The notes: generated by a model from the letters alone, not told the origin. DNA of 31,906 nt from Dehalococcoidia bacterium (GCA_050249515.1 JBFWQJ010000001.1:1-31906), one strand, 5' to 3'. Shown: positions 1,518 to 13,915, numbered from the stretch's first letter. Numbers and translations are program-made.

Positions 1518-2465
1518 ATGTCCGCCACCCATCGCCGGGCCGTGGTGATCGCGAACCCCGCCGCTCGGCGCGCCCTGTCTCCCGGCGCCCTGGAGTCCGC
1601 CGCCGCCGCCGTCCGCGCGCGCGGCTGGGACGTGACGATCGAGGCCCCCGATGGCCGCGCCGACGCGATCGCACGCGCCGAGGCGCACGCGCGAAGTGGA
1701 GTGGACGCGCTCCTCGCATGTGGCGGCGATGGCAGCCTCGGCGTCGTCGTGCGCGGCGTGACCGCCGCGGGCGCCGACACGCCGACCGCTGTGGGCGTGA
1801 TCCCCGCCGGCACCGCGAACGTGTGGGCAGCGGAGACGGGCGTCCCGCGCGAGACGGAGCGCGCGCTCGCGCTGATCGAGGACGGCGTCCGGCGACGCGT
1901 GGACCTCGGCTGGGCGCGCATCGGCGCGGGTGAGCGCGTCCCGTTCCTCCTCGTCTGCGGCGCGGGGCTGGACGCCGCCGTGGTGCGGGCGGTGGAGGCG
2001 CGCCCGGCGTGGAAGCGCCGCGCCGGCCGCCTCGCCTTCGCGTTGCCCGCGCTCACCGCGCTCACCGCGTGGCCCGCGACCGAGGCGCTCGTGACGATCG
2101 ACGGCGAGGAGCTCCGGCCAGAGCACCTGCTGCTCGCGCTCGCCGGGAACGCGCACCGCTACGGCGGCGTCGCGGCGCTCTCGGCGCGCAGCGCGCTCGA
2201 CGACGGCCTCCTCGACGTGGCGCTGTTCGAGGGCGCGCCGGGCCTCCGGGCGCGCCTCGCCCTCGTCGCGCAGGCGCTGCGCGGGCGGCTGGACGAGCGC
2301 ACCGCACGCGGCGTGACGCACCGCCGCGCCGCGCGCGTCACGATCGCGCCCGCGCGCCCGATGCCGGTCGAGGTGGATGGCGACTACCTCGGCGAGTGCA
2401 GCGCCACCGCGCCGCTGGAGCTGGAGGTGGCACCCGGCGCGATCACGGTGATCGCGGGGCGCTAG
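1518..2465 (+). CDS. Diacylglycerol/lipid kinase family protein (YegS/BmrU-like)
   Basis: Motifs IANPAA, CGGDGS, IPAGTANVWA, GAGLDA and VEVDGD. TAGCAT -10 sits 6 nt before ATG (leaderless). Confidence 0.87.
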   Translation: MSATHRRAVVIANPAARRALSPGALESAAAAVRARGWDVTIEAPDGRADAIARAEAHARSGVDALLACGGDGSLGVVVRGVTAAGADTPTAVGVIPAGTANVWAAETGVPRETERALALIEDGVRRRVDLGWARIGAGERVPFLLVCGAGLDAAVVRAVEARPAWKRRAGRLAFALPALTALTAWPATEALVTIDGEELRPEHLLLALAGNAHRYGGVAALSARSALDDGLLDVALFEGAPGLRARLALVAQALRGRLDERTARGVTHRRAARVTIAPARPMPVEVDGDYLGECSATAPLELEVAPGAITVIAGR

Positions 2466-3649
2466 CCCTCCCCGGAGGTGATGGGCGAGAGCGCGCCGTC
2501 CACCAGGCGCAGGCGGCGCGCGCCCGGCAGTTCCTCGCGGCTGGGGCGGTCCTCGTCCGGGGTGGTGATCAGCACCTGGTCGACACCGTAGGCGACGTGC
2601 AGGATGCGCTCGCGGCGGCGCGCGTCCAACTCGGACAGGATGTCGTCCAGCAGCAGCACAGGGGGGTCGCCCGTGCGTCGCGTGGACAGCGCGACCTCTG
2701 CCAGCCGCAGCGCCAGCGCCGCGCTCCGCTGCTGCCCTCGCGAGGCGCTCAGCCCCGCCGGGTGCCCCGCGATGAGGAACGCGAGGTCGTCGCGGTGCGG
2801 GCCGATGCGCGAGACGCCGCGGCGCACATCCTCGACACGCCCCGCCTCCAGCGCCGCGCGCAGTCGCTCCTGCAGGTCGTGCTCGCGGAGCGCCGCCTCC
2901 ACCTCCGCCGGCACACCGGGGAGGTAGCGGATCTCGAGCCGCTCCTCCGTCGTCGCCGCCAGCTCCGCGTAGCGGTCCGCGGCGTCGCGGGCGAGCGCAC
3001 GGACGGACTCCGCGCGCCGCGCGAGGATCAGCGCGCCCGCGGCGGACAGCTCGTCGTCCCAGAAGTCGAGCTGGTCGAGCCCGCGCCCGCCGCGCTCCTG
3101 CAGCCGCCGCAGCAGGCTGTTGCGCTGCTCCAGCACGCGCGCGTAGCGCTGCAGTGCCCGCAGGTACGCCGGGTCGAGCTGCGAGATCGTGAGGTCCAGG
3201 TAGCGGCGCCGGTTCGCCGGCGGGCCGTCGATGATCGCGAGGTCGTCCGCGGCGAACATGACGACGCGCAGCTGGCCGATCAGGTCGGTCGCGCGCCTGG
3301 CGACGCCGTTCACGCGGAAGCGCTTGCCCGCGCGCGTGGGCGGCACCCCCGCGACGGTCACCTGCGCGATGACGGCGACTTCCAGCGCGCGGCGCCCCGC
3401 GGCGGTCTCCACGTCCGCCTCCAGCCGCGCGGCGGGCAGCGGGCCTTCCACGACGGCCTGCCACGCGATGAGGTCGAGGTCCGGGCCGCTGCGCACGCCC
3501 TTCGTCGTCGCGATCATCGCGATCGACTCGAGCAGGTTCGTCTTCCCCGCCGCGTTCGCGCCGGCGATCACGTAGATCCCGGGCGCCAGGTCGATGGCGA
3601 GGTGGCGGAACGAGCGGACATCCGTGAGGGCGAGGTGCGCCAGGTGCAT
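2462..3649 (-). CDS. recF: DNA replication/repair protein RecF
   Basis: N-terminal L..VRSF, Walker A GANAAGKTN, GPPANRRRYLD, IGPHRDDL, SRGQQRS..LAL.LAE and LLLDDILSELD. Confidence 0.95.
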   Translation of the reverse strand: MHLAHLALTDVRSFRHLAIDLAPGIYVIAGANAAGKTNLLESIAMIATTKGVRSGPDLDLIAWQAVVEGPLPAARLEADVETAAGRRALEVAVIAQVTVAGVPPTRAGKRFRVNGVARRATDLIGQLRVVMFAADDLAIIDGPPANRRRYLDLTISQLDPAYLRALQRYARVLEQRNSLLRRLQERGGRGLDQLDFWDDELSAAGALILARRAESVRALARDAADRYAELAATTEERLEIRYLPGVPAEVEAALREHDLQERLRAALEAGRVEDVRRGVSRIGPHRDDLAFLIAGHPAGLSASRGQQRSAALALRLAEVALSTRRTGDPPVLLLDDILSELDARRRERILHVAYGVDQVLITTPDEDRPSREELPGARRLRLVDGALSPITSGEG

Positions 3650-3686
3650 GTGGGCGGATTATCGCATGCGCGCGGGGCGGGCCCGG

Positions 3687-5129
3687 CTACGCCTCGTCCA
3701 GCGTCGCGCGCTCGGCGGCGGTGCGCTCGGGCGCGGCGCGGAGCTCGATGACGAAGCACGCACCGGTGCCATCCGCCGGGGTCTCCACCCAGATGCGACC
3801 GCCCTGCGCCTCGATTAGCCGGCGCGCGATCGCCAGGCCCAGGCCGGAGCCGGGCACGGACTCCCCGCCCGGGCCGCGCACCCGGTAGTACGCCTCGAAG
3901 ATGCGCTCCCGGTCCTCCCGCGCGATGCCGGCGCCGTGGTCGCGCACCTCGATGCGCACGCGCCCCTCCGGCACGCGCATCGCGTTGATCACGATCTCGC
4001 TGTTCGGCGGCGCGTGCCGGTTCGCGTTCGAGAGGATCGCGAGCACCACCTGCTCCAGCCGGTTCGGGTCGGCGACCACGTAGAGCGGCGTGGCGGGGAC
4101 GTCGCCGGTCACGGTCTGCTCGCGCAGCATGAGCGCGGGGCGCATCAGCGACTCCGCGTTGTCCAGCGCCTGCACCGCGTCCACCTCCGCCAGCCGCACC
4201 TCGAACTCCTGCCCGCCCGACCGGCCGAGGTCGATCAGGTCGGTGACGAGGCGGTTGAGGCGCTCCACGCCGTAGGTGAGCGAGGCGACCAGCTCATCGG
4301 CGCCGCTGTCCATGCTCTCGCTGTCCATGCGCAGCAGGTCAGCGAAGGCCTGGATCGACATCAGCGGGGTGCGGATCTCATGCGAGAGTGAGCCCATGAA
4401 CTCGCGGCGGCGCTGGTCCTGGCCCTCCAGGTCGCGCTCGCGCTGGTAGGAGGCCTCGTACAGCGCGGCGTGGTCCAGCGCAGCGCCCACCTGGCCCGCG
4501 ATCGTGGCCAGCACCACGTCGTCGCGCAGCGCCCCGGGCTTGCGGCTGACGAGGAGCAGCAGGCCGATGAGGTCGCCGTTGCTGGTGATCGGGACGCGCG
4601 CCACCCACGGCCGTTTGCCCAGCGCGGGGACGACCGGCGCCACCCACGGGTGCACCTCGCCGCGGTCGCGGCGGATCGAGGGGCGTGGGCCGCTGGTGTA
4701 GCGCACCAGCGGCGCGGTCTTCGCCCAGCCGTCCGGGTAGCCGATGGACGCGAGGACGCGCTGCGCGTCCCCCTGCTCGTCCGCCAGCGCAATCACGCCC
4801 GCCTCCGCGAGCCGGTGGCGCACCAGCGCGGCGAGCGCGCCTCGCGCGGCGTCGCCGATGTTGCGCGGCTCCGCGACGACGTCCAGCAGCACGATCTGCG
4901 CGGCGTGGCGCTGGCGCTCGTCCGTGACGGAGTTGATGTACCAGGCGGCCGGCGCGAGGACGAGCGCGAGGATGCCGAGGTCGGCGGCGAGCAGCAGCGG
5001 CTCGAAGCGCTGGAGGACCGCGAAGCTGATGGCGAGGTGCACGCCGACGAGCAGGCCGCCGCCGAGGAGCGCGAGCACCCAGAGCAGCACGCCGCTGCGG
5101 CGAGCGCGGGAGATCGAGGTCGTCGTCAT
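3687..5129 (-). CDS. Membrane sensor histidine kinase (2 TM, GAF-like, HisKA, HATPase_c); start could extend to TTG at 5216
   Basis: H-box LSHEIRTPL, N-box LEQVVLAILSNA, G1 DHGAGI, G2 GSGLGLAI and two hydrophobic N-terminal segments. Confidence 0.9.
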   Translation of the reverse strand: MTTTSISRARRSGVLLWVLALLGGGLLVGVHLAISFAVLQRFEPLLLAADLGILALVLAPAAWYINSVTDERQRHAAQIVLLDVVAEPRNIGDAARGALAALVRHRLAEAGVIALADEQGDAQRVLASIGYPDGWAKTAPLVRYTSGPRPSIRRDRGEVHPWVAPVVPALGKRPWVARVPITSNGDLIGLLLLVSRKPGALRDDVVLATIAGQVGAALDHAALYEASYQRERDLEGQDQRRREFMGSLSHEIRTPLMSIQAFADLLRMDSESMDSGADELVASLTYGVERLNRLVTDLIDLGRSGGQEFEVRLAEVDAVQALDNAESLMRPALMLREQTVTGDVPATPLYVVADPNRLEQVVLAILSNANRHAPPNSEIVINAMRVPEGRVRIEVRDHGAGIAREDRERIFEAYYRVRGPGGESVPGSGLGLAIARRLIEAQGGRIWVETPADGTGACFVIELRAAPERTAAERATLDEA

Positions 5130-5271: not shown

Positions 5272-6474
5272 CTAGCCGAAGGCGATCGTGATCGAGCGCT
5301 CGGCCTCGGACGCCTCCTGGACGACCGCGTTCTGGCCGAGGCCCGTGCCCAGCCCTTCCGCGATCTCGTCGGAGTCGACGTCGGCGGCGAGCTCCAGGCG
5401 GAGGCGGGCCTCGCCCTGAGAGTAGGCCTCAACCGTGGCCGAGCGGACGGCCGGGATGCGCTGGAGCGCGTCCTGGAGCCGCATCAGGCCCTGGAAGCCG
5501 GACACCGGGGCCGCGCGGAGCTGCACGGCGCCGTCCGCCGGAGTGAACGTGGCCAGCGTGCCGGCGACGTCGTCCGCGTCGTCGCGCTCCCAGAGGTCCG
5601 CGGCGGCGCTGCCGAGGGCAGTGGCGCCCAGCCCGGCCCCACCGATCGAGGAGGGCGCGGGGCGCTCCGGCTCGGCGGCGGGTTCGGACTCGATGACCTC
5701 GGGCTCCGGCGCGCGGAACGGCGCATGGGCCGCCGCGGGCTGGCTGCCGCCGCGCATGGGCGGGACGGCGGAGGGCGGGGGCGGCGAGGCCGGACGCGGG
5801 CGTTCCGGGACGACGCTCAGCCCACCGGGGCGACGCTCGTCCTCCACCGGGCGGGAGAAGGCGGGGCGCGCCGGCGGAGCCGGCGGCGTGCTGGGACGCG
5901 GCGGCGCGGGCGGTGGAGGCGGCTCGGCGGCGGCCGGCGGAGCCGGCGGCGGCGCGGACTGCACCGGCGGGGCCGCCGGCGTGGCGGGCGCCGCGGGCGC
6001 GCTGACGCGCTGGCTGCTGATGATCGACTCGATGCGGGCGAGGCGCGCCTGGACGTCGCGCATGCCGACGACCAGCTCGTCCACGGAGCGGCGGATCGTC
6101 TCCACCTCGATGGCGCTGGCGGCGCCGGCCGGGGCGGACCGTTCGCGGTTGAGCAGTTCGGTGGCGCGCTCCATGGAGTCCTGCATGATGCGCTCGGCGC
6201 GCTGACGCGCATCTGCCAGCAGCATCTCCGCCTCCACCGTGCGCGACCCCGGGGACGAGGTAGACGCGCGGGGCGCGGACTGGGCAGGCGCAGGCTGGGC
6301 GGGCGGCGGCGCGGGCGAGGGGGCCGGGGCGCGGGGCGGCTGGGCGGCGGCGCGAATCGCCTCGCCGGCCTCGGCGCGGTCGCCGTCGGCGCCCAGGGCG
6401 GCGATCAGCGAACCCAGGGCGCGCAGGATCGCGCCCGAGCCGTTGCCGCCCTGGTTCGACGGGTCGAGGGTCAC
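5272..6474 (-). CDS. Hypothetical Pro/Ala-rich protein with coiled-coil segments and a small C-terminal alpha/beta domain
   Basis: GTG start overlaps the response-regulator stop (GTGA). Heptad-like EAEMLLADARQRAERIMQDSMERATELL and VETIRRSVDELVVGMRDVQARLARIE segments. Globular-looking last ~75 aa. Confidence 0.75.
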   Translation of the reverse strand: MTLDPSNQGGNGSGAILRALGSLIAALGADGDRAEAGEAIRAAAQPPRAPAPSPAPPPAQPAPAQSAPRASTSSPGSRTVEAEMLLADARQRAERIMQDSMERATELLNRERSAPAGAASAIEVETIRRSVDELVVGMRDVQARLARIESIISSQRVSAPAAPATPAAPPVQSAPPPAPPAAAEPPPPPAPPRPSTPPAPPARPAFSRPVEDERRPGGLSVVPERPRPASPPPPSAVPPMRGGSQPAAAHAPFRAPEPEVIESEPAAEPERPAPSSIGGAGLGATALGSAAADLWERDDADDVAGTLATFTPADGAVQLRAAPVSGFQGLMRLQDALQRIPAVRSATVEAYSQGEARLRLELAADVDSDEIAEGLGTGLGQNAVVQEASEAERSITIAFG

Positions 6475-10122: not shown

Positions 10123-10536
10123 ATGAGCAACGGCGTCTTCGTGCGATTCGACCAGCGAGGCGACCCGTGGGCGCCGCGCACGCTGGTGCTCCGGTTCATC
10201 GTGAACCTCGCGGGGCTGTTCCTCGCCGACCAGCTGGTGCCGGGGATCCGCATCGCGGACTGGCAGACGCTGATCGCCGGGACCGCGATCTTCGCGATCG
10301 TGAACCTGCTGCTGCGGCCGCTGGCGACGCTCGTGTCGTGCTGCCTGATCGTCTTCACGTTCGGGCTGTTCGTGCTGGTCATCAACGCCGTGCTGCTGCT
10401 GGTGACCGCGTGGGCCTCGAGGCAACTCGGCCTCGGCTTCACGATCGACGACTTCTGGTCGGCGTTCCTCGGCGCGCTCGTGATCTCGATCGTGTCGCTC
10501 TTCGCGACGGTCGCGGTGCGTCCCGGGCGCCTCTAG
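10123..10536 (+). CDS. YvlD-like 4-TM phage-holin-family membrane protein
   Basis: RFIVN..GLFLA..LVPGI...IFAIVN.LLRP...FTFGLF.LVINA.LL...F.I.DFWSAFLGALVIS pattern. TACGAT -10 and GAGGTG RBS. Confidence 0.85.
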   Translation: MSNGVFVRFDQRGDPWAPRTLVLRFIVNLAGLFLADQLVPGIRIADWQTLIAGTAIFAIVNLLLRPLATLVSCCLIVFTFGLFVLVINAVLLLVTAWASRQLGLGFTIDDFWSAFLGALVISIVSLFATVAVRPGRL

Positions 10537-10545
10537 CGACCTGCG

Positions 10546-10593
10546 CTATCGCTCGTCGCCGGGGCGCAGACCGGCAGCGCCGATGGGGGCGCG
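10546..10593 (-). repeat. Displaced duplicate of the last 15 codons plus stop of the FDH alpha gene (left junction)
   Basis: 41/48 identity to 11021-11068. Minus-strand translation RAPIGAAGLRPGDER* versus RAPIGASGLRPGDER*. Confidence 0.9.
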
Positions 10594-10605
10594 AACACCG
10601 GCGGC

Positions 10606-10621
10606 GTTTGTGAACACAAAC
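10606..10621. promoter_or_regulatory. Perfect AT-rich palindrome GTTTGTG-AA-CACAAAC, candidate protein-binding site
   Basis: 7-bp arms are exact reverse complements in an otherwise very GC-rich region. It lies 28 bp upstream of TTGACG. Confidence 0.55.
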
Positions 10622-10649
10622 TCGACGTCGCACGAGCGCCAAGGGGTTA

Positions 10650-10696
10650 TTGACGCCGTCCGCTCCCCCTCTAGCCTCGGCACCCGATGCTAGAGT
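10650..10696 (+). promoter_or_regulatory. Tandem sigma70-type promoter candidates for the cassette ORF
   Basis: TTGACG(10650)-16 nt-TAGCCT(10672), and extended -10 TGc-TAGAGT(10691) placed 7 nt before ATG 10704. Confidence 0.55.
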
Positions 10697-10703
10697 CCGG
10701 CAC

Positions 10704-10958
10704 ATGAAGCACCTATGGCTCGCGGTCGTCTGTGCTCTGGCCCTGTCGTGTACGCCCACACCTCCCGATGGGGGTTCGGACGGCGGCATCGTGACCGGCA
10801 AGACTTCGGCGTCGTGCGCGGGCTTCCCGCCACTCGCGAGCGTCATCATCTCGTGGCGTGAACGCGGTAGGGAGTCCAAGTCGAAGTGCGTGTCGAACAC
10901 ATCGGCGTGCGCGCTGCAAGCCGAGAGGTTGAAGCCACTTCCGCAGGCATGTCGGTAG
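10704..10958 (+). CDS. Orphan 84-aa secreted/lipoprotein-like Cys-rich protein
   Basis: MKHLWLAVVCALALSC-TPTPP signal peptide ending in a lipobox-like ALSC, then four more Cys (38, 62, 69, 83). By hand count 65/84 codons end in G/C, above the local GC content (coding-like bias). Leaderless promoter geometry. Confidence 0.62.
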   Translation: MKHLWLAVVCALALSCTPTPPDGGSDGGIVTGKTSASCAGFPPLASVIISWRERGRESKSKCVSNTSACALQAERLKPLPQACR

Positions 10959-10998
10959 CGGTCACCTACTGAACCGAGCTACTCCCCCTCGACGGCTC

Positions 10999-11018
10999 AG
11001 GGCGACCGACCGCGCCCT
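10999..11018. terminator. Short hairpin between the convergent cassette ORF and FDH alpha gene
   Basis: AGGGCG-N8-CGCCCT begins 2 nt past the FDH stop. No U-tract, so terminator function is uncertain. Confidence 0.3.
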
Positions 11019-11020
11019 CG

Positions 11021-13915
11021 CTACCGCTCGTCGCCCGGGCGCAGCCCGGACGCGCCGATGGGCGCACGGCCCTTGCGCTGCTGCCGCGGCCCGCGGCCGG
11101 CGCGCGAGGGCGTGCCGGGGCGCTCCACGCGCACGGCGCACGCCTTGAACTCCGGGATCCCGGACGGCAGGTCCAGCGCGTCATTCGTGAGGAAGTTCGC
11201 CGCCATCCCCTGCAGCTGCACGAACGGGACGAAGAGTTCGCCGCGCCGCATGCGCGGATCGACGTGCAACTCCGCGATGATCTCGCCGCGCCGGGACGCC
11301 AGTTGCACCTCGTCGCCGTCGGAGAAGCCGAGGCTCGCCGCGTCGTCCGGGTGCATGTCGACGGCGAGCACGGGGACGGTGCCGAGGAGGCCGGGCACCC
11401 GCCGCGTGATCACGCCGGTGTGCCAGTGGTACAGCGAGCGGCCGGTGATCAGCGTGTACGGGAAGCGCTTGCTCGGCAGCTCCGCGGCGACCGGGCCCTG
11501 CTCCACCGCGACGAACTTCCCGAGCCCGCGCGCGAACTCCGTCTCGAACAGCCTCGAGGTGCCGGGGTGGGTCGCGTTTGGGACGGGCCACTGCAGGCCG
11601 CCCTCGCGCTCCAGCCGCTCGTGAGAGAGCCCGGCGATGATCGGCATCAGGCTCGCCATCTCCTCGAACACGGCGTCGCTGTCCGCGTAGTCGAAGCCGC
11701 GCACGGGGCGCTCCAGGAGACGCAGCACGCGACGCGCGATCTCCGCGGTGATCGCCCAGTCCTCGCGCGCCTCGCCGGGCATCGGCAGGAACGGGCGCAC
11801 CATCTGCACGCGACGCTCCGAGTTGGTGAACGTGCCGGTCTTCTCCGCGAACGACGCGGCCGGCAGCACCACATCCGCCAGCTCCGCCGTCTCGTGCATG
11901 AAGATGTCCTGCACGACGAGGAAGTCGAGGCGCGCGAAGGCGTCGCGCGTGTGCGCGAGGTAGGGGTCGCTGATCAGCGGGTTCTCGCCGACGACGTACA
12001 TCGTCCGGAGGTGGCCCTCGATCATCTCCTCGATCATGTGCGTCGACTGGAGGCCGGGCGCCTGCGAGAGGTCGACGCCCCACGCCGCCTCGTACTTCGC
12101 GTGCGCGGGGCCGGTGTAGGGCTCGTAGCCGGCGAAGGTGTTGGGCAGGCAGCCGGAGTCGGAGCAGCCCTGCACGTTGTTCTGGCCGCGCAGCGGGGAG
12201 ATGCCGTTCCCCGGCCCGCCCACCTGCCCGGTGAGCAGCGCGAGGTTGATGAGCGAGCGCGCGTTGTCTGAGCCGTTGGTGTGCTGGGTGATCCCCATCC
12301 CCCAGATCATGCAAGAGCCGCGCTCCTCGCCGTCCAGGCCCGGGCGAGGCTTCGCGTAGAGCCGCGCGGCGCGACGGATCAGGTCCGCCGGGACGTTGCA
12401 GATGCGCTCGGCGTCCTCGGGCGTGACCTGCTCCACCACCCGCCGCCACGCCTCGAAGCCCTCCGTGCGCGCCTCCACGAAGTCGGGCGACCAGAGGCCC
12501 TCCTGCAGGATGACGTGCGCCATCGCGTTGAACAGCGCGACGTCCGTGCCGGGGCGCGGCTGCAGGTGGATCTCGGCCAGGTCGCACAGGTCGATGCGGA
12601 TCGGGTTGACGACGATGAGCGTCGCGTCACGGTCCTCGACGGCGCGCCGGAGCCGCGAGGCGATCACGGGGTGGTTCTGCGCGGTGTCGCTGCCGACGAC
12701 CAGCAGCGTGCCGGCGATGTCGTAGTCCGCGTACGAGTTGCTGGTCGCGCCCGACCCCACCATCTCCTGCAGCGCGACGACCGAGGGCGCATGGCACATC
12801 CGCGAGCAGTGGTCGATGTTGTTCGTGCCCATCACGGCGCGCACGAACTTCTGCATCACCCAGCCGTCCTCGTTCGTCGCCTTCGCGGACGCGATCCCGG
12901 CGAACGATCCGATCGAGTCGGCAAAGCGCCGCGCGACGAGGTCGAGCGCCTCGTCCCAGGTGGCGCGCTCCAGCGGGGCGCCCTTGCCGCCGCGGCGGAT
13001 CATCGGGTGGAGCAGGCGCTCCTCGGACTGCGCGAACTCCAGGCCGAACCGCCCCTTCACGCAGGTCATCCCCTGCGACGAGCCGTTGCCCGGCATGCCG
13101 TCCACCCACGCGATGCGCCCGTCCTCCACGCGCACGGACAGCCCGCAGCCCACGCCGCAGTACGGGCACGTGGTCTCCGTCACCGCGACGCGCGAGGGCG
13201 CCGGGACGACGGGGAGCGCGATCATGCCGGGGCGGTCGTTCTCCATGCGGTGCGAGGCGCTGGCGGGCGCGGCCTTCGGCATGAGCGCGCCGGTCGGGCA
13301 CTGCGAGACGCACTGGCCGCAGGAGGTGCAGATCGAGTCCTCCCACGCCGCATCGAACGCGACGCCGATGTGCGCCGTCGCGCCCCGCCCGTTGATCCCG
13401 ATCGCGCCGATGTGCTGCGTGCGCTGGCACGCGTCCACGCAGCGGCCGCAGAGGATGCAGTCCGCCATGTCCAGGCTGAAGAAGAGGTTGCTCTCATCCC
13501 TCGGCGCGCCGATGCCGGCGGCGCGCGGTCGCGGCACGTACGAGGAGACGTCGAGCCCGTGCGCGAGGGCGTGCTGCCGGGCGGTGCCGTGGCCGACGCC
13601 GTCGTCCGACATCCCGATCGTCAGGTCCAGCACGCCGCGACGGATGCGCTGCGCCCGCTCGCCGTCCGTGCGGATCGCCGTGCCCTCCGCGATCGGCGTG
13701 TGGCACGCGGCCACGAGGCGCGGCGAACCCTCGACCTCTACGAGACACGTCCGGCAGGCGCCCAGCGGGCCGCGCGCGTCCGGCTTGCACAGGTGCGGCA
13801 GGTCCGCCGCGGCCGCCTCGATCGCGTCGAGGATCATCGCGCCGCGCGCCACCCGCACCGCGCGGCCATCCACGGTGACGTCGAGGTACGGTGGGGAGGC
13901 AGGCACGCTAGTCAT
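11021..13915 (-). CDS. fdhF: Formate dehydrogenase alpha subunit (Mo/W-bisPGD, Cys-ligated) with N-terminal Fe-S domains
   Basis: 2Fe-2S motif HLC...GACRTC...C, CILCGRCVDAC, CTSCGQCVSQCP, CPYCGVGC...CVKG, active-site NIDHCSRMCHAPS, LRGQNNVQG, EKTGTFTNSERRVQ, TGRSLYHWHTG. Confidence 0.95.
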   Translation of the reverse strand: MTSVPASPPYLDVTVDGRAVRVARGAMILDAIEAAAADLPHLCKPDARGPLGACRTCLVEVEGSPRLVAACHTPIAEGTAIRTDGERAQRIRRGVLDLTIGMSDDGVGHGTARQHALAHGLDVSSYVPRPRAAGIGAPRDESNLFFSLDMADCILCGRCVDACQRTQHIGAIGINGRGATAHIGVAFDAAWEDSICTSCGQCVSQCPTGALMPKAAPASASHRMENDRPGMIALPVVPAPSRVAVTETTCPYCGVGCGLSVRVEDGRIAWVDGMPGNGSSQGMTCVKGRFGLEFAQSEERLLHPMIRRGGKGAPLERATWDEALDLVARRFADSIGSFAGIASAKATNEDGWVMQKFVRAVMGTNNIDHCSRMCHAPSVVALQEMVGSGATSNSYADYDIAGTLLVVGSDTAQNHPVIASRLRRAVEDRDATLIVVNPIRIDLCDLAEIHLQPRPGTDVALFNAMAHVILQEGLWSPDFVEARTEGFEAWRRVVEQVTPEDAERICNVPADLIRRAARLYAKPRPGLDGEERGSCMIWGMGITQHTNGSDNARSLINLALLTGQVGGPGNGISPLRGQNNVQGCSDSGCLPNTFAGYEPYTGPAHAKYEAAWGVDLSQAPGLQSTHMIEEMIEGHLRTMYVVGENPLISDPYLAHTRDAFARLDFLVVQDIFMHETAELADVVLPAASFAEKTGTFTNSERRVQMVRPFLPMPGEAREDWAITAEIARRVLRLLERPVRGFDYADSDAVFEEMASLMPIIAGLSHERLEREGGLQWPVPNATHPGTSRLFETEFARGLGKFVAVEQGPVAAELPSKRFPYTLITGRSLYHWHTGVITRRVPGLLGTVPVLAVDMHPDDAASLGFSDGDEVQLASRRGEIIAELHVDPRMRRGELFVPFVQLQGMAANFLTNDALDLPSGIPEFKACAVRVERPGTPSRAGRGPRQQRKGRAPIGASGLRPGDER

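Follow-up and report, generated by a model that had tools for sequence, protein, structure and literature searches.

The stretch analyzed here is a 31,906-nucleotide (nt) contig from an uncultured, high-GC (guanine-plus-cytosine) Chloroflexota bacterium (Dehalococcoidia-like), a member of a lineage found in landfill and wastewater. The contig (C1, 31.9 kb) belongs to a metagenome-assembled genome (MAG; G000) that was recovered from a mixed community, comprises 357 contigs and 2.95 Mb, and is 90.7% complete. We refer to the contig in its entirety as the window; its GC content is 0.73. Within the window, a gene for a Phage_holin_4_2-family membrane protein and the gene for the alpha subunit of formate dehydrogenase (FDH) converge, and the 3' end of the FDH alpha gene is present twice at their junction, once as the end of the gene and once as a detached fragment beside the holin-family gene, with 427 nt of added DNA between the copies. 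An earlier note on this DNA had described the arrangement as a mini-island with attL/attR-like ends and had considered, among other possibilities, a cassette mobilised in trans. The features of the junction are as follows.

10123-10536, plus strand: gene for the Phage_holin_4_2-family membrane protein (137 aa; Pfam PF04020, E = 4e-23), convergent with FDH; stop codon at 10534-10536
10537-10545, no strand: 9-nt spacer CGACCTGCG from the holin-family stop to the left FDH-tail copy, like the short spacers of genomes G002 and G005
10546-10593, minus strand: left repeat copy, an orphan 16-codon stub of the FDH alpha 3' end (RAPIGAAGLRPGDER, then stop), joined to no FDH body
10594-11020, no strand: insert, 427 nt, GC 0.65 versus 0.73 for the window
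10605-10620, no strand: putative palindromic element at the left edge of the insert, a perfect 7-2-7 palindrome (GTTTGTG AA CACAAAC)
10637-10620, minus strand: terminator-like hairpin from a scan for such structures, its T-rich tail overlapping the palindrome
10688-10696, plus strand: extended -10-like box TGCTAGAGT, 7 nt ahead of an ATG, a candidate leaderless-type start
10704-10958, plus strand: orphan open reading frame (ORF) of 84 aa with a lipoprotein-type signal (MKHLWLAVVCALALS before C) and 4 Cys in the mature part
10985-11020, no strand: right-hand end of the insert (CCCCTCGACGGCTCAGGGCGACC...), directly adjoining the FDH stop
11021-11068, minus strand: right repeat copy, which is the FDH alpha gene's working 3' end (RAPIGASGLRPGDER, then stop)
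11021-13915, minus strand: FDH alpha gene (964 aa; Fer2_4, Fer4, Molybdop_Fe4S4, Molybdopterin, and Molydop_binding domains)

The two copies of the direct repeat (10546-10593 and 11021-11068) are identical at 41 of 48 positions. A 50-nt version (10544-10593 and 11019-11068) is 86% identical with its copies 475 nt apart, and the pair is recovered with an E value of 4.7e-8 when the whole 2.95-Mb assembly is searched against itself by BLAST. Translation of either copy on the minus strand gives RAPIGA(A/S)GLRPGDER, followed by TAG. The seven mismatches fall at repeat positions 4, 16, 25, 30, 31, 43, and 46; six of them are at third codon positions, and the one at position 30 is the Ala/Ser change. 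The earlier note's description of direct repeats that encode the same C-terminus and differ mainly by synonymous third-position changes is therefore confirmed. The amino acid sequence of the right copy is identical to the FDH tails of G001, L086, and L088-90, and the gene that it completes encodes a protein 94% identical to one from a Chloroflexota MAG that is named formate dehydrogenase subunit alpha at NCBI.

This arrangement is probably not an assembly artefact, which the earlier note had named as one way its reading could fail. Coverage of the junctions was judged from assembled Logan contigs, which drop rare variants. A 1,412-nt contig from run X1 (the likely source run), made by an independent assembler, covers 10367-11778 with 0 differences and so crosses both repeats and the insert. 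The right junction is matched exactly in runs X2 and X3, which are other samples of the same landfill study as X1, and 10704-10854 is matched exactly in run X4, from wastewater and a separate study. A joint that skips the 475 nt is absent among the Logan contigs listed, these being assembled contigs from which rare excised forms could be lost. In X4, the insert ORF region is a separate 151-nt contig with 0 differences, and a 1,007-nt contig that is 95% identical to the 3' part of FDH, covering 11019-11918, ends at 11019; either this run contains two strains, or the insert is more conserved than its flank.

We compared the holin-FDH spacer with that of relatives, the nearest of which share only ~88 to 89% DNA identity with the window. 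In same-genus sequences, the stop codons of the holin-family gene and FDH overlap (G003, L087, and L091) or are separated by a spacer of 16 nt (G002), 72 to 77 nt (G001 and L088-90), or 167 nt (L086). Neither the insert nor a second FDH tail is present in any of G001, G002, G003, L086, L087, and L088-91. Empty or near-empty sites, which the earlier note had proposed to look for, are thus present in G002, G003, L087, and L091, and the added DNA is an insertion relative to same-genus genomes. The suggestion that the left copy is the original gene end also gains support, in that its 9-nt spacer compares with the 16-nt spacer of G002 and the spacer CGACCTG of G005. We read the left copy as a likely remnant of the resident allele; the stub (10546-10593) is not a gene.

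In other genera, this position is occupied by other cargo, as the earlier note had also anticipated. The holin-FDH spacer holds a PemK/MazF toxin with an RHH antitoxin in G024 (L006 2176-2864) and a 140-aa PAS-domain protein in G016 (L009 2254-2676). No duplicate of the FDH tail was found at the occupied spacers of G024, G016, G013, G019, and G001. Since relatives have empty sites as well as different cargo here, the spot is a general rearrangement hot spot and not the target of one element. The FDH alpha gene was not found in G004-G007 (four of the seven same-genus genomes; 72 to 88% complete), and in metagenome contigs L093-L097 it is not adjacent to the holin-family gene; in all of these the holin-family gene converges directly on a NuoF-like gene or a small ORF. 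FDH alpha itself is a presence/absence polymorphism at this junction. NuoE/NuoF-like genes still adjoin the holin-family gene in L010, L011, L014, and L093-L097, as does a 59-aa ORF in G005 and G007. At informative sites, ancestry across the window is mosaic, with ~50% assigned to group A at 10400-11400 versus ~85 to 90% in the outer flanks.

The end of the holin-family gene is also unusual. Its product terminates here in ...VAVRPGRL (10510-10536), whereas all relatives examined have ...VV(R/A)T(E/D)xx(R)(Y/F). Because the C-terminus differs from all of these, the last ~8 codons of the gene, which lie beside the stub, appear to have been remodelled.

The divergence between the two FDH ends bears on their origin. 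The left and right copies differ at 7 of 48 positions (14.6%), and this FDH differs by 11 to 16% between species. From the tail of G001, the left copy differs at 6 and the right copy at 7 of the 48 positions. As the stub is about as far from the working end as either is from the G001 tail, it resembles the orthologous end of another lineage and not a fresh copy; and as the divergence between the copies matches that between species, both ends probably diverged as working gene ends. The earlier note's claim that both copies evolved as functional FDH ends is accordingly probable. Its accompanying p value of 0.007 was too optimistic, as it presumes position-neutral changes. Under a fairer null, simulated such that the working copy takes only synonymous changes and the stub drifts, at least six of seven differences fell at third positions in 2.7% of simulations (p ~0.027). 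When the changes are polarised against relatives, three of ~4 stub-specific changes are at third positions (p ~0.11).

The insert itself is without similarity to anything else in the assembly, and no similarity to the FDH or holin flank rose above that of shuffled sequences; for the latter reason, a degenerate tandem duplication of the flank was dropped as its source. A tblastx match between the insert and positions 1657-2043 of the window was rejected as an out-of-frame, Arg-rich artefact that contains a stop. The insert is single-copy in the genome and no other copy was found in any collection searched. Among the public runs served, it was found in only four, all of which also have parts of this locus. 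DNA words from the palindrome and the ORF start gave 0 matches in genome, viral, and metagenome contigs, and an Rfam scan of 10400-11200 returned nothing.

The 84-aa lipoprotein is the sole coding-like ORF in the 427 nt, as the earlier note's single cargo gene implied. By inspection and a regular-expression scan, MKHLWLAVVCALALS-C fits the lipobox pattern of an N-terminal basic residue and a hydrophobic stretch followed by [LVI..][ASTG..][GAS]-C. The GC content at third codon positions (GC3) is 0.78 in the ORF versus 0.97 in neighbouring genes. The ORF matches no Pfam family, and homologues were found neither in a search of 5.8 billion proteins nor in GTDB contigs, 401 genomes of the class, or the ESM Atlas. 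A single metagenome match (L092) was discarded as a 19-residue low-complexity stretch lying outside any ORF. None of six possible insert ORFs was on record in an exact look-up, and the 84-aa ORF has never been called as a gene in the public collection.

A strict sigma-70 scan found no -35/-10 pair ahead of the ORF. A 30-nt start module at 10684-10714 recurs ahead of unrelated genes in other genomes of the family, some encoding lipoproteins and one a P-loop protein. The module, CGATGCTAGAGTCC(G/C)GC(A/G)C(A/G)TGAAGC(A/G)CC, consists of the extended -10-like box, 7 nt, and the start codon; besides the site in the window, it was seen in L099 (1501-1531), L116 (4267-4296), L115, L114, and L117, and it occurs once or twice per genome in several family members and once in G000. 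We considered the module as the mark of a mobile lipoprotein cassette family and dropped the idea because it also precedes the P-loop protein and other ORFs. Its probable role is that of a strong leaderless promoter and start context typical of the lineage, a reading that in turn suggests a genuine gene at the ORF and a related organism as the source of the insert. All told, the 84-aa ORF is probably a gene.

At its other end, the insert resembles DNA that normally follows FDH. The 36 nt that abut the working FDH stop align colinearly with the FDH-downstream DNA of G013 (31 of 37 positions identical), with a score reached by 0 of 300 and 0 of 200 shuffles. This end of the insert is colinear with a motif, CCCTTCGACGG(G)CTCAGG, that is located 20 to 50 nt beyond the FDH stop in G013 and at two G061 loci (20 to 35 nt at the latter); both genomes belong to other genera than G000. 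Only ~3 near-copies of the motif exist in the G000 genome, so its recurrent position behind FDH is unlikely to be due to chance. Because the motif also stands directly downstream of FDH in two other genera, the FDH-side junction of the insert looks like native chromosome. We conclude with moderate confidence that the added DNA would be ordinary chromosomal DNA of a relative, with a native anchor-side junction.

Searches for the machinery and target sites of a mobile element gave little. There is no recombinase on the 31.9-kb contig and no integrase or integrase fragment in the 427 nt, in keeping with the earlier note. Matches to the tyrosine recombinase family PF00589 are on contigs C166, C284, C40, and C308 and none on C1, and serine recombinases (PF00239) have 0 matches in the 90.7% complete assembly. 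A degenerate pattern of the FDH tail occurs once per FDH gene in G001 and G002 and twice only in G000. Away from FDH, where an attP-like copy would lie, it is nowhere in 99 genomes of the family, and it has 0 matches in viral contigs; in GTDB representatives there is one match, in a Chloroflexi MAG, the context of which was not inspected. These results speak against a larger element with this att site. The proposed crossover core, the exact 11-mer GCGCCGATGGG (10577-87 and 11052-62), is indeed present in both copies, but it is not unique, as a second exact block of equal length, CGCTCGTCGCC, is shared at 10550-10560 and 11025-11035. Without a recombinase on C1, an attP-like tail, a second copy of the insert, or a unique core, the idea of an attL/attR-like cassette mobilised in trans is not supported.

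A comparable junction is present elsewhere in G000. On contig C76 (L118/L121), the terminal 45 nt of a PurF-like gene with its TAG (582-626) recur with 2 mismatches at 1460-1504, 878 nt downstream. The resulting stub is joined to ~8 nt from the beginning of a duplicated purM start, giving a 17-codon chimeric mini-ORF, and the joint has GACGC microhomology with 3 to 4 nt of filler. Two different intergenic contents are stacked in tandem at this site, and the repeat is absent from G002 and G003. A 93-nt element from upstream of purM is also duplicated here (1379-1471 and 3316-3408, 82%), with a 245-aa lipoprotein gene (GC3 0.74) between the copies and a second unit with a DUF4386 gene. We dropped C76 as a second "mini-island" because its lipoprotein gene is resident in relatives and its stub is a duplication junction of purM start and PurF tail. 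The arrangement on C76 suggests an illegitimate crossover that stacked two alleles.

Based on these observations, and with modest assurance, we consider that the insert and the stub are probably the scar of recombination between two divergent alleles of the variable holin-FDH spacer, and thus a strain-level structural variant. The locus has the anatomy of such a scar: a truncated fragment of the resident gene borders non-homologous DNA with an intact homologous copy across from it, and the insertion is polymorphic among relatives at a recombination-prone site. Several lines of evidence favour this reading. Both outer junctions look chromosomal, by comparison with G002, G003, and G005 on the left and with G013 and G061 on the right. 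The stub behaves as an orthologous FDH end, and the codon bias (p ~0.03) argues against its decay in situ. The site is variable in the genus and in other genera, and ancestry is mosaic around the junction. No recombinase on C1, serine recombinase in the assembly, attP-like tail in the family genomes or viral contigs, or second copy of the insert was found, and the same genome carries a second scar of like kind (C76).

In the process that we envisage, two alleles of the spacer would have met in one cell when DNA of one entered a cell with the other. One, a tight allele like those of G002, G003, and L087, would have had the holin stop, ~9 nt, and the FDH stop; the other would be a long allele, with a small leaderless lipoprotein gene and the short conserved motif directly downstream of FDH. 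One end of the incoming DNA would have been joined by homology, in FDH or in holin/ECH, and the other illegitimately, linking codon -16 of the resident FDH (10593) to a point in the long spacer (10594). Such a process may be termed homology-facilitated illegitimate recombination (HFIR) or, equivalently, an unequal illegitimate crossover. The recombinant would retain the spacer of the long allele and an intact, near-synonymous FDH end, now the right copy, while the final 48 nt of the resident gene would be left stranded beside the holin-family gene as the left copy. The manner of joining and the identity of the donor allele are the parts that we infer.

Several points weigh against this scenario. 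The donor allele, with the holin-family gene, the insert, and FDH but no stub, was not found among the sequences searched. The right-end match to other genera is short (37 nt), the motif within it may be a dispersed element of the repetitive extragenic palindromic (REP) kind, and when the 81-nt right end was searched loosely by BLAST across the family, the matches were mostly at chance level, adding nothing beyond the syntenic comparison. With the closest relatives at the DNA identity given above, the mosaic signal is not attributable to this event. Finally, a site-specific integrase would leave the same repeat geometry, in which a diverged copy restores the gene end.

This last point leads to the alternative of a decayed site-specific integrative element, comparable to e14 or phage 21 in icd, in which an attP would have brought the replacement FDH 3' end and an internal deletion would have left attL, one cargo gene, and attR. 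The geometry is classic, with a displaced original and a working diverged end forming direct repeats from the stop codon inwards, and it parallels icd and icdC around e14 as far as these are set out in PMC13626634. The GC content of the insert is reduced, and homologues of it were not found. Integrase islands do exist in the genus (on C40 of G000, and with the integrase by tRNA-Gly on C308), as does an integrase-less islet of 849 bp between 50-nt tRNA-Gly(TCC) 3' repeats in G001. This explanation must nonetheless contend with the lack of any integrase or fragment in the 427 nt or on C1 and with the lack of an attP-like FDH tail in the family genomes and viral contigs, apart from the one GTDB-representative match noted above; the arm by the working end resembles the native FDH-downstream DNA of other genera, which is unexpected for the attP arm that it would have to be, and the internal deletion must have spared both att sites and a complete gene with its promoter. 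We regard it as unlikely. A minimal one-gene cassette without its own recombinase, moved into gene 3' ends by a host or helper enzyme and carrying or generating a ~48-nt end replacement (a 45- to 50-nt duplication), with the G001 islet as a sister element, is highly improbable. Three loosely similar layouts, at the FDH site, C76 of G000, and C6 of G001, have a small lipoprotein ORF between 45- to 50-nt gene-end repeats, and the same 30-nt start module precedes the ORFs at the FDH site and on C6. The repeats and insert ends of the three are without common sequence, however, and therefore without a common recombination site. Moreover, C76 resolves into a purM/PurF duplication junction whose lipoprotein gene is resident in relatives, the module also precedes genes for proteins other than lipoproteins, and the insert is single-copy and known only from runs that also have parts of this locus; we take this explanation to be already weakly refuted.

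The two remaining alternatives invoke no mobile element. An old partial duplication of the FDH tail in situ, by template switching or slippage, with neutral decay of the stub and separate acquisition of the intervening DNA, would draw on the short local duplications that are common in genomes, and the codon-position test rejects it only at p ~0.03, or ~0.11 once the changes are polarised. A divergence of 14.6% would date the event to around the split from G001, G002, and G003, yet the stub and insert are absent from these genomes as well as from L086, L087, and L088-91, and the insert has no similarity to either flank; we hold such a history to be very doubtful. A chimera of two strains in the metagenome assembly might be suspected for a 357-contig MAG from a mixed community, given that related strains occur in the same runs and many of the contigs are only 90 to 99% alike. 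Against it stand the X1 contig of an independent assembler, which runs through both repeats and the insert, and the exact right junction in two other samples; in addition, the longest exact word common to the two repeat copies is 11 nt, which is too short to mislead a de Bruijn assembler. This is the explanation to which we give least credence, and it is barely plausible.

Conventional integration does occur in the genus. In G001 (C6, L099), the 849-bp unit mentioned above lies between 50-nt direct repeats (98%; 1238-1287 and 2087-2136) formed by the 3' 50 nt of tRNA-Gly(TCC). The unit carries a single 152-aa lipoprotein ORF that shares its 30-nt start module with the ORF in the window; it has a palindrome with 17-nt arms near its left end and lacks an integrase, and searches of other relatives did not find it. 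In G003 (C61, L143; 1442-1492 and 3468-3542), tRNA-Gly(TCC) has a ~2-kb insert of lower GC, and the repeat reaches ~30 nt past the tRNA into the flank. On contig C308 of G000 (977-1738), a gene for a tyrosine integrase stands ~100 nt from tRNA-Gly(TCC). This tRNA gene looks like an integration hot spot in the genus. A conventional integrated element is present on C40 of G000 (L120), where 93-nt direct repeats (88%; 1244-1336 and 5781-5873) surround 4.5 kb of GC 0.66 with a 350-aa tyrosine integrase (PF00589, E = 1e-32) beside the right repeat. Contig C71 of G000 (1575-4912, L119) has an array of at least four repeated segments that are 75 to 250 nt long, 77 to 100% identical, begin with CCCGGCCTCGTGACCGGCCTCGCCCTCAAGCGCATCGT, and lie ~800 to 1,600 nt apart, with a GC content of 0.64 to 0.71 between them.

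Comparison with known systems places the FDH site nearest to recombination scars. HFIR is an experimentally documented route by which foreign DNA is added beside a homologous anchor (PMC3240628; PMC5361080). Descriptions of it exist for three species with natural competence and for conjugation in E. coli, and it has been put forward to explain how orphaned 3' gene fragments arose at Rhs loci and in type VI secretion system (T6SS) effector-immunity arrays of Vibrio (PMC3240628; PMC5361080). As at the FDH site, new DNA in those cases stands beside a homologous anchor, a short resident fragment is stranded at the illegitimate joint, recombinases, att sites, and element-specific ends are lacking, and the site is variable among relatives. 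The FDH site differs in that no more than 48 nt were stranded, an orthologous, near-synonymous copy provides the working end, and the lineage is an uncultured member of the Chloroflexota.

The likeness to e14 and phage 21 in E. coli icd is of another kind. According to the account in PMC13626634 (citing Hill et al.), the 3' end of icd is replaced by a diverged copy that leaves the protein nearly unchanged, and the icdC C-terminal pseudogene of e14, like the left copy here, is the original end displaced across the insert as a direct repeat. The e14 element is a 15-kb prophage that carries an integrase of its own and excises, whereas the insert here is 427 nt with no recombinase on the contig. 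Unlike e14, no attP copy was found here in family genomes or viral contigs, and the arm by the working end looks like native chromosome. The tRNA-Gly(TCC) islet of G001 shares with the FDH site a small, lower-GC insert with one lipoprotein gene, repeats of 48 to 50 nt from a gene 3' end, and the lack of an integrase. Its target, however, is a tRNA gene, the usual target of integrases, and its repeats are 98% identical; tRNA-Gly has a neighbouring integrase in G000 (C308), and the FDH tail is without such a link. As to integron-like cassettes, neither a conserved recombination site nor multiple cassettes or copies were found.

The arrangement, read as such a scar, is a further case of a known kind and opens no new mechanism. 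Its value lies in the annotation of the stub and the 84-aa ORF and in one more datum on the variable spacers of convergent genes. It also carries a caution: a gene-end duplicate that has diverged synonymously mimics an attL/attR pair and can come from the stacking of alleles by illegitimate recombination. For the biology of this lineage, the scar would show a route by which a small orphan gene for a secreted lipoprotein came to lie behind a core energy-metabolism gene without damage to it.

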